A DNA stretch of 64,000 bases from positions 1 through 64,000 of the forward strand of contig DATKPA010000021.1 of assembly GCA_035524355.1 (NCBI GenBank), given 5' to 3'. Positions 8,962 through 12,282 of this stretch are shown here, piece after piece (the first letter of the stretch is position 1; every line of letters begins with the position of its first letter). This DNA comes from Phycisphaerae bacterium (GTDB lineage: Bacteria; Planctomycetota; Phycisphaerae; WQYP01). The notes under the pieces are model-generated. The model did not search any database. It had not been told where the DNA came from and was given only the letters and a program-made list of their open reading frames with translations. The position numbers were made by a program, and so were the translations under genes.

Positions 8962-9032
8962 GTGCCTGGCGGGATTTGAACCCGCAGCCTCAGCGCTGGC
9001 GGCGCCGCGTTCTGCCGTTGAACTACAGGCAC
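8962..9032 (-). tRNA. tRNA-Gly(GCC) with C33
   Basis: acceptor GTGCCTG/CAGGCAC, U73 (Gly-type discriminator), anticodon loop CCGCCAG (C at position 33). Confidence 0.6.
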
Positions 9033-9043
9033 ATCATCTATAA

Positions 9044-9116
9044 ATCCCAAGCGGGGCCTCGAACCCCGAACCTCCTGTTTACGAAACAGGCGCTCTGCCA
9101 ATTGAGCTACAAGGGC
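9044..9116 (-). tRNA. tRNA-Thr(CGT)-like, probable pseudogene (acceptor stem does not pair)
   Basis: good D-, anticodon (CCTGT-TTCGTAA-ACAGG) and T-arms but 5' GCCCTTG vs 3' CTTGGGA gives only 4/7 pairs. Confidence 0.4.
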
Positions 9117-9128
9117 ATCACGACAAAA

Positions 9129-9213
9129 AGCTCGGAGCGGGACTCGAACCCGCGCGGCGCATCGCGCGCTGTGGATTTGCAATCCACCGCCTTCGCCTCT
9201 CAGCCACCCGAGC
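9129..9213 (-). tRNA. class-II (long variable arm, Ser-like body) tRNA with GCA (Cys) anticodon, U73
   Basis: 85 nt; acceptor GCTCGGG/TCCGAGC, Ser-like D-arm TGGCTGAGAGGCGAAGGC, anticodon arm GTGGA-TTGCAAA-TCCAC, 15-nt variable stem-loop AGCGCGCGATGCGCC. Confidence 0.5.
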
Positions 9214-9227
9214 ACATTTACTTCCAA

Positions 9228-9299
9228 TGACCCCGCTGGGACTTGCACCCAGAACCCTTCGGTTAAGAACCGAATGCTCTGCGATTGAGCTACGGAGTC
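9228..9299 (-). tRNA. tRNA-Lys(CTT)
   Basis: anticodon arm TTCGG-TTCTTAA-CCGAA; T-loop TGCAAGT (G55 atypical); A73. Confidence 0.7.
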
Positions 9300-9306
9300 C
9301 ATAATA

Positions 9307-9329
9307 GTGGCATGGGCGTCTCGCCCATG
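9307..9329. repeat. GTGG-CATGGGC-GTCTC-GCCCATG hairpin repeat (copy 3)
   Basis: abuts 5' end of tRNA-Lys(CTT). Confidence 0.6.
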
Positions 9330-9339
9330 TTTGCTGAAT

Positions 9340-9412
9340 TTGGCCCGGACGGACTCGAACCGCCGACCTCCGCCTTATCAGGGCGGCGCTCTACCGACTG
9401 AGCTACAAGCCA
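9340..9412 (-). tRNA. tRNA-Ile(GAT)
   Basis: acceptor TGGCTTG/CGGGCCA, anticodon arm CCGCC-CTGATAA-GGCGG, A73. Confidence 0.8.
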
Positions 9413-9431
9413 GAATGAAAACTAGAAACCC

Positions 9432-9504
9432 TCGGCCCGAGCGGATTCGAACCGCCATCCACTTCCTTATAAGGGAAGCGCTCTACCCATTGAGCTACGG
9501 GCCA
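9432..9504 (-). tRNA. tRNA-Ile(TAT)
   Basis: anticodon arm CTTCC-CTTATAA-GGAAG (UAU anticodon, rare in bacteria); T-arm GGCGG-TTCGAAT-CCGCT. Confidence 0.65.
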
Positions 9505-9514
9505 ATACTCTCAA

Positions 9515-9554
9515 TCTCTTTGTGGTCCTTTGTGCCTTTGTGTCCTTCGTGTTT
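9515..9554. repeat. CTTTGTG-type heptamer tandem array
   Basis: tctctttgtggtcctttgtgcctttgtgtccttcgtgttt; related arrays at 12124-12166, 13021-13058, 35043-35082. Confidence 0.55.
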
Positions 9555-9568
9555 AATCGTCGTCCGAA

Positions 9569-9642
9569 TAGCGGGAGTTGGATTCGAACCAACGAATCGC
9601 AGCGTATGAAACTGCGGACTTTGACCACTCGTCCATCCCGCA
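9569..9642 (-). tRNA. tRNA-Met(CAT), elongator-like
   Basis: anticodon arm GCAGT-TTCATAC-GCTGC; 1:72 U-U mismatch; 3-bp D-stem. Confidence 0.65.
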
Positions 9643-9658
9643 ATGAATCCAGAACCAC

Positions 9659-9700
9659 ATCTCTGTGCGTCTCTGTGCCCTCTGTGACTCTGTGGTTTCT
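9659..9700. repeat. CTCTGTG heptamer tandem array
   Basis: atctctgtgcgtctctgtgccctctgtgactctgtggtttc, 4 units, same orientation as 9515-9554, flanking the tRNA-Met gene. Confidence 0.55.
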
Positions 9701-9726
9701 CACCTCTCGCTAACCGTGTGAGCGCA

Positions 9727-9800
9727 TCGCGGAGGAGGGACTCGCACCCTCAACCCTCGGCGTATGAAGCCGCCGCTCTTCCTGTTTGAGCTACCCCGCG
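9727..9800 (-). tRNA. tRNA-fMet(CAT), initiator-like
   Basis: acceptor CGCGGGG (as in E. coli initiator), three consecutive G-C pairs closing anticodon loop (GGC/GCC), anticodon loop TTCATAC; T-loop TGCGAGT. Confidence 0.65.
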
Positions 9801-9953
9801 TTTTCCCTTCCCCGACGCCGGCGGTCCCCGACGAAAGCCACGTCCCCTCGCGAAGCACGCGCTTCGCCCTTCTCTCAGAGGACTCGTCTTTCACCTGATG
9901 GGGTGAGGGACCGCCGGCCCGACATGAGCATCCCGCCCCCCCCCCATTCCCGT

Positions 9954-10574
9954 TCAACTCTTGAGCTCCACGTTCCAGTACGCATCGTCGACAAACTGCG
10001 CCCACGATGCGTGCTGCACTCGAATCAGCTGCGACGTAGACTTGAGCGCCAGCGGCGGCCGAATGAGCCGCATGCCAACTTGCGCTGCCGTCTTATCCGC
10101 CTTTCGCGAGTTGCAGCTCGTGCAGGCGCAGACGAGGTTTTCCCAGGTGTCGCCGCCGCCGCGCGAGCGCGGAATCACGTGGTCGAGTGAGAGTTCGCTC
10201 GTCGAAAACCGCTTCCCGCAGTACTGGCACGTGTTGGCGTCGCGCTGGTAGATGTTCCGCCGGTTGAGCGGAACGCCCCCGTTGCGCGGGCGCCGGTGCC
10301 GATCGAAGCGGGTGAGCCGTACAACATTCGGCGCTGCAACACATCCGCGCACGAGACCGACCCATGCGTGCTTGTCCGATTCGAATTCCGCCCGCAGCAT
10401 CGAGAGCTCGCGCCACGAGCTGAAGTCATAGGTCGCCAGGTGCGGATCTTCGGTGTCGACCACTTCCGCCGCGCCGGTAACGAGCAGGCTCAGTGCACGA
10501 CGTACGTCGATCACACGGATCGGAGCAAAGGTCTTGTTGAGCGTTAACACGGGAGATTCCAGAATCGCGGACAT
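9954..10574 (-). CDS. HNH endonuclease
   Basis: YCGKRFSTSELSLDHVIPRSRGGGDTWENLVCACTSCNSRK is a canonical HNH/McrA-type motif; start placed at MSAILESP because the longer ORF (to 10889) would run through tRNA genes. Confidence 0.75.
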   Translation of the reverse strand: MSAILESPVLTLNKTFAPIRVIDVRRALSLLVTGAAEVVDTEDPHLATYDFSSWRELSMLRAEFESDKHAWVGLVRGCVAAPNVVRLTRFDRHRRPRNGGVPLNRRNIYQRDANTCQYCGKRFSTSELSLDHVIPRSRGGGDTWENLVCACTSCNSRKADKTAAQVGMRLIRPPLALKSTSQLIRVQHASWAQFVDDAYWNVELKS

Positions 10575-10624
10575 CGTGCACCTCCTTTCTTGTTTGCAAC
10601 ATGGACGCGACGGGGGGAGGGGAA

Positions 10625-11164: not shown

Positions 11165-11237
11165 TCATCCCGGAAGGACTCGAACCTCCAACTTCCTCGA
11201 TGTAAGCGAGGCACTCTGCCAATTGAGTTACGGGACG
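11165..11237 (-). tRNA. tRNA-Val(TAC)
   Basis: anticodon arm CCTCG-CTTACAT-CGAGG, A73. Confidence 0.8.
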
Positions 11238-11274
11238 TCTGTTCGGAGTTCCGCCTTCAGGCGGTTCAGCGGAT

Positions 11275-11348
11275 TGGAGTGGGCGGGATTCGAACCCGCA
11301 ACCTCCTGCGTGCAAAGCAGGCGCTCTTCCAATTGGAGCTAACACCCC
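11275..11348 (-). tRNA. tRNA-Ala(TGC)
   Basis: G3-U70 pair, anticodon arm CCTGC-TTTGCAC-GCAGG identical to E. coli tRNA-Ala. Confidence 0.85.
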
Positions 11349-11358
11349 GAAAATGTGA

Positions 11359-11430
11359 TTGGGTCGGCAGGAGTTGAACCTGCACCTCCGGTGTCAAAGA
11401 CCAGCGTGCTACCGGTTGCACCACGACCCA
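11359..11430 (-). tRNA. tRNA-Gln(TTG)
   Basis: U1-A72, anticodon arm CTGGT-CTTTGAC-ACCGG. Confidence 0.8.
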
Positions 11431-11440
11431 GTTTTTTTTT

Positions 11441-11547
11441 AACCACAGAGGACACAGAGAACACAGAGAACACAGAGACGACGGAGTGAACGCATGTGCA
11501 TACACGGCGCACGTGGTTCTCTGTGAGCTCTGTGTTCTCTGTGGTTT
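11441..11547. repeat. hairpin element with CACAGAG heptamer-tandem arms
   Basis: 5' arm aaccacagaggacacagagaacacagagaacacagag (11441-11479) complementary to 3' arm ggttctctgtgagctctgtgttctctgtggtt (11516-11547); preceded by T9 run. Confidence 0.6.
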
Positions 11548-11590
11548 ATTTCGGTGGTCGGGGGAAGGGGGGACGGGGGAAGGGGGGACA

Positions 11591-11664
11591 CGACCGCGGA
11601 AGGGGTCGAACCTTCAACCTCCTGCTTCGTAGACAGGCGCTCTTCCGGATTGAGCTACGCGGTC
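11591..11664 (-). tRNA. tRNA-Arg(ACG)
   Basis: acceptor GACCGCG/CGCGGTC, anticodon loop CTACGAA, G73. Confidence 0.8.
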
Positions 11665-11671
11665 ACAACCA

Positions 11672-11694
11672 GTGGCATGGGCGTCTCGCCCATG
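11672..11694. repeat. GTGG-CATGGGC-GTCTC-GCCCATG hairpin repeat (copy 4)
   Basis: identical core to copy 3; 8 nt from 5' end of tRNA-Arg(ACG). Confidence 0.6.
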
Positions 11695-11711
11695 TTTTCC
11701 GAGAATGAACG

Positions 11712-11783
11712 CTGGCACGGCAGGACTCGAACCTGCAACTTCCCGGTTAACAGCCGGGCGCTCTACCATTGAGCTACGCGCCA
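11712..11783 (-). tRNA. tRNA-Asn(GTT)
   Basis: U1-A72, anticodon arm CCCGG-CTGTTAA-CCGGG, G73. Confidence 0.8.
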
Positions 11784-11789
11784 ATTCAG

Positions 11790-11874
11790 TGGAGGGTGAG
11801 GGAGTCGAACCCCCAAGGCATTTACGCACAACTGTTTTCGAGACAGTTCCCGTCGCCAATCGGTGTGACCCTCC
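11790..11874 (-). tRNA. tRNA-Ser(CGA)
   Basis: 85 nt class-II, acceptor GGAGGGT/ACCCTCC, anticodon arm ACTGT-CTCGAAA-ACAGT; A73 (G73 expected for Ser). Confidence 0.7.
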
Positions 11875-11942
11875 GGACATTCGAGAAAAGAAGCGCGGCG
11901 GCGACGTGGAGTGTGCGCCGCCGCGCGGTCCCAGGAGAAAAC

Positions 11943-12014
11943 ATGTGGCCGGCAGGAATCGAACCTGCACCTCCTGGTCTTCAGCCAGGCGCTCGACCGA
12001 TCGAGCTGCAACCA
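11943..12014 (-). tRNA. tRNA-Phe(GAA)
   Basis: anticodon arm CCTGG-CTGAAGA-CCAGG; C at position 8. Confidence 0.7.
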
Positions 12015-12018
12015 CATA

Positions 12019-12107
12019 AAGGAGAGAGAGGGATTCGAACCCCCGCTTCCCCGACCGGGGAAGTCCGCGTTAGCAACGCAGCGCGTTCAACCGCTCCGCC
12101 ATCTCTC
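12019..12107 (-). tRNA. tRNA-Ser(GCT)
   Basis: 89 nt class-II; acceptor GGAGAGA/TCTCTCC, Ser D-arm GGCGGAGCGGTTGAACGC, anticodon loop TTGCTAA; U73. Confidence 0.75.
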
Positions 12108-12123
12108 CAGAAATACAGCAAAA

Positions 12124-12166
12124 CGCCTTCGTGGTCCTTCGTGCTCTCCGCGTCCTTCGTGTTTAA
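12124..12166. repeat. CCTTCGTG heptamer/octamer tandem array
   Basis: cgccttcgtggtccttcgtgctctccgcgtccttcgtgtttaacg. Confidence 0.55.
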
Positions 12167-12211
12167 CGTCTTTTCTCTGCGAATCCCGCGTTCGCCGCGG
12201 CGAATACCAAG

Positions 12212-12282
12212 CAGCCCCAGCGGGAATCGAACCCGCCCCTCCGGCTTGAAGGGCCAGCGTCCTGCCACTAGACCACGGGGCC
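12212..12282 (-). tRNA. tRNA-Glu(TTC) with C33
   Basis: Glu-type D-arm GTCTAGTGGCAGGAC, anticodon arm CTGGC-CCTTCAA-GCCGG, G73. Confidence 0.65.

Follow-up and report, generated by a model that had tools for sequence, protein, structure and literature searches.

A long array of tRNA genes, several of which depart from the consensus at highly conserved positions, occupies the minus strand of a 64,000-nucleotide stretch of DNA from a Phycisphaerae bacterium (GenBank assembly GCA_035524355.1, contig DATKPA010000021.1, positions 1 to 64,000; this whole stretch is hereafter called the window). Comparison with eight related arrays shows, at the level of sequence, that most of the non-canonical nucleotides are stable, long-inherited states of individual genes, and the pattern of substitutions indicates that the stems of these tRNAs are under strong purifying selection; only the acceptor stem of one gene, tRNA-Thr(CGT), looks like decay. 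L-arrays are long, supernumerary, horizontally spread tRNA arrays of approximately 20–43 genes without periodicity (Santamaria-Gomez et al. 2021; PMC8421152), and the HNH endonuclease gene, rtcB, the patchy distribution and the short-armed Leu tRNAs of the present locus make it probable, in our view, that it is a chromosomal accessory tRNA operon of this kind. Taken as a whole, the explanation that we favor, and hold to be the likelier one, is an L-array of selected spare tRNAs, with relaxed constraint on their fine tuning and an induction linked to RtcR.

ARAGORN called 32 tRNA genes in the window, 30 of which form a single minus-strand array between positions 7868 and 12504 (4.6 kb), all in one orientation, closely spaced and without a repeating isotype pattern. 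Their anticodons, as assigned by ARAGORN, cover all 20 amino acids, and none of the 30 genes encodes the CCA end. An HNH endonuclease gene (9954–10574, minus strand; Pfam HNH_5, HNH and HNH_4) splits the array into two blocks of 15 genes each, both called with ARAGORN and Rfam. Block 1 (10625–12504, minus strand) runs Leu(CAG), Glu, Ser(GCT), Phe, Ser(CGA), Asn, Arg(ACG), Gln(TTG), Ala, Val, Tyr, Asp, Trp, His and Pro(CGG), an order that is identical in two related genomes, L002 and L003; block 2 (7868–9800, minus strand) runs Met, Met, Ile(TAT), Ile(GAT), Lys(CTT), Cys, Thr(CGT), Gly(GCC), Leu(CAA), Gly(TCC), Arg(TCT), Arg(CCG), Leu(GAG), Leu(CAA) and Lys(TTT). An earlier reading of this DNA, made by a model from the sequence alone (hereafter, the original prediction), had drawn attention to the deviations and proposed covariance scoring as a check; with the Rfam tRNA model, 29 of the 30 array genes reach the gathering score (34.6–73.9 bits), the exception being Ser(CGA).

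Related arrays were collected with two handles. The embedded HNH protein gave syntenic arrays in two Phycisphaerae metagenome-assembled genomes (MAGs; L002 and L003) and in metagenomes (L084, L085, L086 and L089), and the small open reading frame (ORF) in the leader of the array gave two long-read contigs with arrays (L184 and L185); with the window, these eight related Phycisphaerae arrays make up a set of nine. The gene order of L002 and L003 equals that of the window except for one or two gains or losses. As controls, we used the non-array tRNA genes from approximately 160 loci of related bacteria, which numbered 29 after two evident ARAGORN false positives had been dropped. Deviations were read from cloverleaves and from Rfam alignments, in which positions 8, 33 and 55 are upper-case (highly conserved) in the consensus. 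A deviation at one of these positions is present in 9 of the 30 array genes, versus none of the 29 non-array Phycisphaerae tRNAs (Fisher p = 0.002), so that the density is indeed unusual for core tRNAs, as had been claimed; over the nine arrays together, 56 of 215 genes deviate. The other arrays have private deviations of their own: C33 in Leu(GAG), Val and Cys, G33 in Pro(TGG), G55 in Gly(GCC), and C55 in Glu and Leu. The array genes are 56–73% identical to canonical core-type tRNAs of relatives.

Replacement of U33 by C33, which had been reported for three genes, is present in all of them, the anticodon loops being ccttcaa in tRNA-Glu(TTC) (12211–12282; this and all array tRNA genes below lie on the minus strand), ccgccag in tRNA-Gly(GCC) (8961–9032) and tccggaa in tRNA-Pro(CGG) (10625–10697). 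The Glu loop, with C32-C33, is identical in 7/7 arrays that have the gene, and it stays fixed in these seven while other stems of the tRNA change with compensation. For Gly(GCC), C33 is found in six of eight arrays (window, L084, L085, L089, L184 and L185), L002 and L003 having a divergent U33 version. The Pro(CGG) gene, which also is without G18, has C33 only in the window, in its nearest relative L084 and in L001, an independent ENA contig that is 100% identical to the window over 9937–11469; since five other arrays have U33 in this gene, C33 is here a recent change.

G55 was likewise found where it had been predicted, in two Lys genes and one Met gene. tRNA-Lys(CTT) (9228–9299; T-loop tgcaagt) has G55 in 7/7 arrays with the gene; across them its position 18 is C, G or T, and its T-stem changes with compensation. 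tRNA-Lys(TTT) (7868–7940; T-loop tgcgagt), which has 81% identity with Lys(CTT) and 84% with Arg(TCT), belongs to a type with G55 in the window and L185 and U55 in L089. Both Lys genes of the window are without G18. Among the G55 Lys genes in general, any of the four nucleotides can stand at position 18, the usual partner of position 55, while G19, the partner of C56, never changes. The Met(CAT) gene with G55 (9727–9800; T-loop tgcgagt; G55 in 6/6 arrays with the gene) had been labeled fMet, which is doubtful: positions 1 and 72 are paired (C1-G72) and the D-stem has C11:G24, both of which are elongator-like. A mismatch at 1:72 together with A11:U24 typically marks the bacterial initiator tRNA, and it is the second tRNA-Met(CAT) gene (9568–9643) that has both, the mismatch being kept in every array as U.U, U.C or C.A; the label is therefore probably misplaced. 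G55 is also present in a viral tRNA-Arg(TCT) (IMG/VR contig L164, 150–224; T-loop tgcgaat) that lies beside an HNH homologue, and G55 is thus not confined to bacterial arrays.

Position 8 is not U in three genes, again as described. In tRNA-Trp(CCA) (10787–10860), which has the lowest Rfam score of the array (34.6–39 bits), A8-U9 occurs together with G14, and A8 is found in 7/7 arrays with the gene. In tRNA-Phe(GAA) (11943–12016), the Rfam alignment places C8-G14-C21 in the positions of U8-A14-A21, and C8 is found in 8/8 arrays with the gene. Both clear non-U8 genes thus carry G14 instead of A14, and Phe also C21. The third gene, Ser(CGA)-like (11789–11874), indeed lacks the U but is more aberrant than a simple non-U8 gene: a 3-nt connector, CAC, replaces U8-R9, the D-stem is weak, and the best Rfam match is tRNA-Sec at 38.6 bits, below the cut-off of 47. 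The connector is present in 6/6 arrays, the gene being near-invariant in five of them and showing compensatory D-stem and anticodon-stem changes in L086. Because its D-arm register is ambiguous, we claim covariation of positions 8 and 14 for Phe and Trp alone.

Every deviation that had been listed is present, but the list was incomplete, the variable arms of the Leu and Cys genes, a pyrimidine at position 37 of Asp and the missing G18 having been passed over; the interval given for it, 8962–12282, contains most of the listed genes and leaves out Lys(TTT). tRNA-Asp(GTC) (10883–10955; loop ctgtcta) has a pyrimidine 37, as do its counterparts in L003, L086, L089, L184 and L185. tRNA-Cys(GCA) (9129–9213, 85 nt, U73) has a long variable arm of 4 bp and a 7/5 acceptor/T arrangement, a class II shape that six arrays keep through compensatory changes. 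In bacteria, tRNA-Cys normally belongs to class I, and charging of this tRNA by SerRS besides CysRS may be conceivable in view of its shape. The Leu genes depart in the other direction: tRNA-Leu(CAG) (12430–12504) and the Leu genes at 8877–8951, 8084–8160 and 7980–8053 are all without the long variable arm, class I in shape and 74–77 nt in length, with A73 kept. Core Phycisphaerae Leu(TAG) genes are 84–85 nt and long-armed. Leu orthologues with a full arm occur in L086 (84 nt) and L089 (82 nt), and it follows that the arm was deleted within this array family. In established work on E. coli LeuRS, leucylation does not depend on the variable arm.

The tRNA-Thr(CGT) gene (9044–9116) is of another nature. 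Its acceptor stem has 4/7 pairs, as had been stated, with mismatches G1.A72, U5.U68 and U6.U67: the 5' strand reads gcccttg instead of the tcccgag of six other arrays, which pairs with cttggga, and the 3' strand is unchanged. The defect occurs in the window alone, where the neighboring spacer has changed as well, and by prediction the gene folds 5.7 kcal/mol less stably than its L084 orthologue. It is probably impaired or disabled in this genome.

The stems of the array tell of long maintenance. Relative to L002 and L003, 153 stem pairs differ, of which 76 have changed on both sides and are paired, 70 have changed on one side and are paired, and 7 are broken. In the Gly(GCC) family (6 sequences), 100% of cells pair and 8 pairs have changed on both sides; in the Lys family (7 sequences), the corresponding values are 99.3% and 6. 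For both families, 0/500 shuffles reach the observed covariation, and slid controls fall to 30–53% pairing. Spacer lengths vary between the genomes, and tRNA identity is 71–99%. Since the stems stay paired through compensatory change, the array genes have been maintained as folded RNAs and not as pseudogenes. Comparison with orthologous tRNAs, which had also been proposed, thus places most deviations as old and conserved across related arrays. The suggestion of relaxed or alternative selection holds for a part of the picture, in that weaker constraint fits some positions, but not for the whole, in which the stems are under purifying selection and most deviations are conserved across nine arrays.

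The array is not a complete decoding set. None of its tRNAs decodes ACC, CCC or TCC, which rank among the most used codons, with 94, 92 and 76 occurrences in eight window genes identified with confidence; there must therefore be further tRNA genes. From this gap and from the relatives, we infer that the array is an addition to housekeeping tRNAs whose genes lie elsewhere. The Leu(TAA) gene of L002 and L003 corresponds to a Leu(CAA) gene in the window, a shift that matches host codon use (one TTA versus 44 TTG). Deviant genes and incomplete decoding, together with the finding of no rRNA in the Rfam scan and of no periodicity in the gene-order comparison, argue against a housekeeping operon or an accretive A-array. 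Arrays or array fragments were found in 11 of approximately 160 Phycisphaerae or metagenome loci with an HNH homologue (among them L002–L004 and L084–L089): homologues with 69–86% identity all lie inside arrays, and the more distant ones with approximately 50% identity, of which Phycisphaerae have many, are hardly ever so placed. HNH homologues of Acaryochloris, Tsukamurella, Rhizobium and a 595-kb phage were considered as further arrays and rejected, the HNH gene being there without an array.

On its left, the array is flanked by ordinary chromosomal genes for SpoVR, phosphoglucomutase and MarC, and on its right by rtcR on the same strand, followed by a divergent operon. The base composition of the array matches that of the host, whose closest genomes are Phycisphaerae MAGs from soil. 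A prophage or phage tRNA cluster was considered and rejected, given these chromosomal flanks and the lack of a close viral match; in IMG/VR and INPHARED, no close viral relative was found, full-length HNH matches having at most 33% identity and the best phage records 29–37%. Of the proposal of an accessory or mobile array, the first term is thus borne out by the decoding gap, HNH, rtcB and the patchy distribution, and the second is not, as the locus appears to have been inherited vertically within the carrier clade, together with the rtcR locus.

The regulatory surroundings suggest, from sequence motifs and position, that the array is induced together with RNA-repair genes. The gene directly upstream of it, on the same strand, is rtcR (13078–14703, minus strand; Pfam RtcR and Sigma54_activat), the sigma-54-dependent activator of RNA-repair genes, and it has the same position in L003, L089, L184 and L185 (five loci including the window). 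A pattern match identifies a sigma-54-type promoter, TGGCATGcttcCTGC (12843–12857, minus strand; -24 GG, -12 GC), before the array, and cross-genome conservation upstream of the array starts exactly at this point, with TTGGCATG-N4-YYGC-GTATAG (12857–12843); the same promoter with the same spacing is present in L002, L003, L086, L089, L184 and L185 (seven arrays including the window). Approximately 125–135 nt farther upstream lies the inverted repeat GGATACACTTTCTATCC (12979–12995), a candidate enhancer, that is, an activator-binding site. A repeat of the form GGATA-N6/7-TATC(C/T) stands 110–150 nt upstream of the promoter in the window, L002, L003, L086, L089 and L185, which is the usual distance for the activator site of a sigma-54 promoter. 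One other strict copy of the inverted repeat exists within the 64 kb. A third strict copy, GGATA-N8-TATCC at 19931–19948, stands 95 nt before the start codon (ATG, 20043) of an 870-aa ORF and was set aside, there being no sigma-54 motif between the two.

Beyond rtcR, a sigma-54-type promoter of similar build, aGGCACactccTCGC (14838–14853, plus strand), precedes the divergent rtc operon; the promoter was read from the sequence and is conserved in L003 and L089, and a half-site, CTATA-N6-TATCC (14712–14727), is conserved in L003. The operon consists, in order, of a tRNA-like gene, a band-7 gene, tRNA-Gln(CTG), an uncharacterized ORF and rtcB. rtcB is approximately 5 kb away in the window and within approximately 7 kb of rtcR in L089 and L184, and Ro60 is present in L003, L089 and L185. 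The tRNA-like gene (14945–15019, plus strand) begins approximately 80 nt downstream of the promoter, has an Asn(GTT) anticodon, an encoded CCA and an A.C mismatch in the acceptor, and sits where L003, L089 and L185 have the Ro60 gene; the same gene in L184 (7791–7865, minus strand) has an identical anticodon arm with TTT. The tRNA-Gln(CTG) gene, between Ro60 or band-7 and rtcB, is conserved inside the rtc operon (window 16755–16826, plus strand; L003 3736–3807; L089 4364–4434; L184 5711–5782; L185 5959–6030); in Salmonella, this place belongs to the tRNA-like Y RNAs, and the gene may encode either an ordinary tRNA or a portion of a Ro-binding RNA.

Between the array promoter and the first tRNA lies a leader of approximately 340 nt (12505–12842), which contains a conserved small ORF of 54 aa (MSAFTHNFLPQW...; 12585–12749, minus strand) and, behind it, a GC-rich stem with a T-run. 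Length differences between genomes come in multiples of three in this ORF, a similar peptide is apparent by eye in L089 and L086, and relatives called as genes number four, two of them again downstream of rtcR. No Pfam match was obtained for the small ORF. RNAalifold predicts long stems in the leader with variation concentrated in the loops, and 4 covarying pairs from three sequences. A known RNA family was rejected for the leader, which has no Rfam match at E up to 5. In view of the peptide in L086 and L089 and the ORF called in four other assemblies, we treat the leader as carrying a small ORF, possibly with an RNA structure alongside; it may be a leader peptide or an attenuator. A 17-nt complementarity between the leader and the Ser(CGA) variable arm was rejected as chance, as it is not conserved in L003.

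A further sequence element links the array and the rtc operon by its distribution: the hairpin CATGGGC-N5-GCCCATG, followed by CCAC, has five copies in the window, which are restricted to array spacers (7950–7968, 8172–8190, 9311–9329 and 11676–11694) and the rtc operon (16632–16650). The array copies end 10–11 nt ahead of the next tRNA, and L002 and L003 have the hairpin at the matching spacer, L003 also in its rtc locus. It could serve in processing or in the binding of a protein.

L-arrays have been reported from seven phyla including Planctomycetes, with a conserved HNH endonuclease gene and with neighbors such as rtcB (PMC8421152), and the closest known system is the trn array on plasmid delta of Anabaena PCC 7120. 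The window HNH protein is 37% identical to the Anabaena one over 85% of the query (tblastn, E = 6e-24). Both arrays are long, in one orientation and patchy among relatives (26 genes in Anabaena, 30 in the window); common to both are the local succession Glu(TTC)-Ser(GCT)-Phe-Asn-Gln, Leu tRNAs that have short arms and one type of D-loop, and an identical Ser(CGA) anticodon arm. Several window genes are 71–75% identical to Anabaena array genes, which may hint at a common ancestry, although tRNAs are short. In the Anabaena array, 5/23 genes deviate (one G55 and four non-U8), C33 having been seen in none of them. The two loci differ in that the HNH gene is directly upstream of the operon in Anabaena and in the middle of the array in the window, and in that the Anabaena array is on a plasmid whereas that of the window is chromosomal and directly downstream of rtcR. 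Anabaena trn is silent until translation is impaired; 23 of its 26 tRNAs are made and charged, those tested are in the polysome fraction, three of the 26 genes are pseudogenes, and some array tRNAs, but not housekeeping ones, are cleaved during stress, for which a role as sponges has been proposed (PMC8421152). Control also differs: in Anabaena, a sigma-70 promoter is repressed by TrcR, which controls trn, the HNH gene and rtcB, a slipin gene is also de-repressed in the trcR mutant, and an RtcR homologue is reported absent (PMC10272220), whereas the window has a predicted sigma-54 promoter and activator site. The rtcB and band-7/slipin genes that are neighbors in the window are thus co-regulated with trn in Anabaena.

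Other known systems resemble the locus in part. In the Tunturiibacter (acidobacterium) jumbo phage Tunturi_5, an HNH gene lies inside a tRNA array, beside RtcB and CCA-adding enzyme, and 2/17 genes of the jumbo-phage array deviate. The tRNA array units of Mycobacterium genomes, plasmids and phages comprise tens of clustered tRNA genes with HNH as the most widespread companion and with RNA-repair or translation genes in the vicinity (Morgado and Vicente 2018; PMC5966550); these arrays are on plasmids, phages and islands and are thought to be horizontally mobile, in contrast to the conserved rtcR-side flank and host-like composition of the window array. RtcR operons of Enterobacteria, namely rtcBA in E. 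coli and rsr-yrlBA-rtcBA in Salmonella (PMC7790460, PMC10159003, PMC4201824), share with the window the placement of rtcR divergent from an operon with a sigma-54-type promoter and rtcB and/or Ro60, and the window operon has tRNA or tRNA-like genes in place of the tRNA-like Y RNAs of Salmonella. What sets the window apart from Enterobacteria is a second sigma-54-type promoter, across rtcR from the first, which faces a 30-gene tRNA operon. In the literature searched, which did not cover all journals, we found no tRNA array described in an RtcR regulon. In Salmonella, 5' tRNA halves with a cyclic phosphate end have been proposed as RtcR activators (PMC7790460, PMC10159003).

These observations are consistent with the explanation that we favor, in which the array would consist of working spare tRNAs with weaker constraint on U8, U33, U55, G18 and R37 than in core tRNAs. 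Deviations would be tolerated since folding, processing and charging are all that is asked of a supplementary tRNA, without selection for peak decoding efficiency, and some appear structurally compensated (C8-G14-C21, A8-G14, and a variable position 18 with G55). Recent changes would be few, namely C33 in Pro(CGG) and the probably disabling acceptor of Thr(CGT). The operon would be read from the sigma-54-type promoter with its upstream inverted repeat, downstream of rtcR, and would probably be switched on with the RtcB/Ro repair genes upon tRNA damage or impaired translation; the induced array would then replenish the tRNA pool, as in the experiments on Anabaena trn under a different regulator. 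Several points weigh against this reading. The case for RtcR control consists of adjacency and motif similarity, the site at the rtc operon matches the inverted repeat by half, and in L086 promoter and repeat are retained although no rtcR adjoins them. The supernumerary status is drawn from the decoding gap and from relatives, with 64 kb of the genome in view. That C33 and G55 have been kept for so long could be due to positive selection, for example toxin escape, and non-U33 arose in at least seven different genes of the array family. Finally, with Ser(CGA) below the Rfam threshold and Thr(CGT) probably defective, not all 30 genes need function.

Positive selection of this kind is the core of the main alternative, which we regard as unlikely: the changes at U33, U55, U8, G18, position 37 and the arms would have been selected for making the array tRNAs poor targets of tRNA nucleases or modifying toxins, or independent of a modification that these toxins require, so that a backup set survives the attack that triggers it. 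The genes in which non-U33 arose independently and was then kept are at least Glu, Gly(GCC), Pro(CGG), Leu(GAG), Pro(TGG), Val and Cys, and the array is physically coupled to rtcR, rtcB and Ro. Anticodon-loop mutations in phage tRNAs have been proposed to block host anticodon nucleases (van den Berg et al. 2023; PMC10264068), a precedent that also concerns supplementary tRNAs with a differing anticodon loop and a link to tRNA damage and repair; that proposal, however, deals with known nucleases and mapped sites, whereas the window array has a bacterial carrier and many deviations (8, 14, 18, 55 and variable arms) outside the anticodon loop. Position 33 is near a real site of attack, since CdiA-CT of E. 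coli 536 cuts between 32 and 33 (PMC11724271), and G33 lowers cleavage by yeast gamma-toxin, but C33 is without effect on it (PMC2275089). G55 and position 8 are far from known anticodon-nuclease sites, no toxin was identified among the annotated ORFs of the window, up to approximately 19 kb, and in Anabaena it is the array tRNAs that are cleaved under stress and not the housekeeping ones, the opposite of what escape predicts (PMC8421152). A damage-triggered emergency set, in which RtcR would sense cleaved tRNAs and, through the sigma-54 promoter, call up 30 tRNAs made toxin-refractory or modification-independent by their conserved replacements (C33, G55, C8-G14-C21, lost G18 and altered variable arms), so that translation restarts while RtcB and Ro repair or clear the ordinary ones, is in our estimate rather unlikely too; in such a scheme, the leader ORF with its stem and T-run could add a translation-sensing attenuator.

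It is quite improbable that the array has a role outside translation, its products being decoys for toxin RNases, fragments signaling to RtcR, or substrates of Ro or RtcB, with decoding nucleotides free to change. The sponge role proposed for the stress-cleaved Anabaena array tRNAs (PMC8421152), the tRNA or tRNA-like genes inside the rtc operon itself and the CATGGGC hairpin common to array spacers and rtc operon only are in keeping with such a role, but the strongly conserved anticodons and anticodon arms, the full coverage of 20 amino acids, the Leu(TAA)-to-Leu(CAA) shift that tracks host codon use, and the retention of identity features (Leu with A73, Cys with U73 and, in one Met gene, the mismatch at 1:72) all argue for decoding, as do the charging of 23 of 26 Anabaena array tRNAs and the presence of tested ones on the polysome fraction (PMC8421152). 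Decay, with the deviations as pseudogene mutations in the leftover of a dead prophage or mobile element, we hold to be very improbable: the Thr(CGT) acceptor is broken in the window only, Ser(CGA) falls below the Rfam threshold, an HNH gene and an inserted ORF lie inside the array, and three of 26 Anabaena array genes are pseudogenes (PMC8421152), yet 146 of the 153 changed stem pairs still pair, covariation is far above that of shuffles, gene order is conserved in nine assemblies with HNH identity down to 69%, promoter and leader are conserved, and full-length viral matches do not exceed 33% identity. Least credible of all, to the point of being hardly tenable, is a norm of the lineage or an artefact of sequencing or assembly, which the original prediction had named as what would overturn it. 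The same deviations do recur in related genomes, but their recurrence is limited to orthologous array genes, none of the 29 ordinary tRNAs of the clade deviates, and the core Leu tRNA is long-armed; L001 agrees at 100% over 1.5 kb, and eight further assemblies from different projects and platforms agree as well. A sequence error is conceivable for the window-private Thr acceptor alone, where the three substitutions within 7 nt make it unlikely.

Some features of the window stand apart from these questions. A 107-aa ORF (8546–8869, plus strand), located between Gly(TCC) and Leu(CAA), is membrane and zinc-ribbon-like, its product having hydrophobic ends and a CxxC...CxxC motif; since the two tRNA genes are 20 nt apart in L002 and L003, it is an insertion and does not belong to the array core. 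Many intergenic regions have tandem repeats of 7–10 nt, often as two inverted blocks able to form long hairpins (for example 10958–11055, 11441–11546, 15401–15473, 24827–24859, 40778–40929 and 57921–57949); those of the CACGAAGG type were rejected as locus-specific signals, as similar 7–10-nt repeats occur throughout the window. GC skew is very strong, from -0.45 to +0.36 in 2-kb windows (for example 1–26000 and 54000–64000 versus 32000–52000), and appears to follow gene orientation with a C-rich coding strand, as checked for the genes of 100–19032, which are mostly on the plus strand with a skew of approximately -0.3. Two inverted copies of the Acido-Lenti-1 motif (Rfam RF01687, 44–47 bits; 1669–1714, minus strand, and 2307–2352, plus strand) flank the gap between the SpoVR and phosphoglucomutase genes, in a planctomycete host outside the motif's namesake phyla.

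Accessory L-arrays with an HNH gene and rtcB were known before; what we did not find in the literature searched is an L-array situated directly downstream of rtcR, behind a conserved sigma-54-type promoter, a candidate enhancer and a small ORF. To our knowledge, accessory tRNA arrays are widespread and have been studied functionally mainly in Anabaena and Acidithiobacillus ferrooxidans. The nine related arrays amount to a natural mutagenesis series, under selection, of nucleotides that are called universal in tRNA: tRNAs can stably keep C33, G55, C8-G14-C21 or A8-G14, lose the Leu arm or carry such an arm on tRNA-Cys while being selected, and the series is useful for judging which nucleotides are truly required and for tRNA engineering. 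In addition, the array is linked by position and promoter type to RtcR, a sensor of damaged tRNAs. In Anabaena, the link between array and repair is regulatory and passes through an unrelated repressor, whereas here it is written in the DNA, which makes testable the idea that bacteria answer tRNA damage by repair and replacement together.

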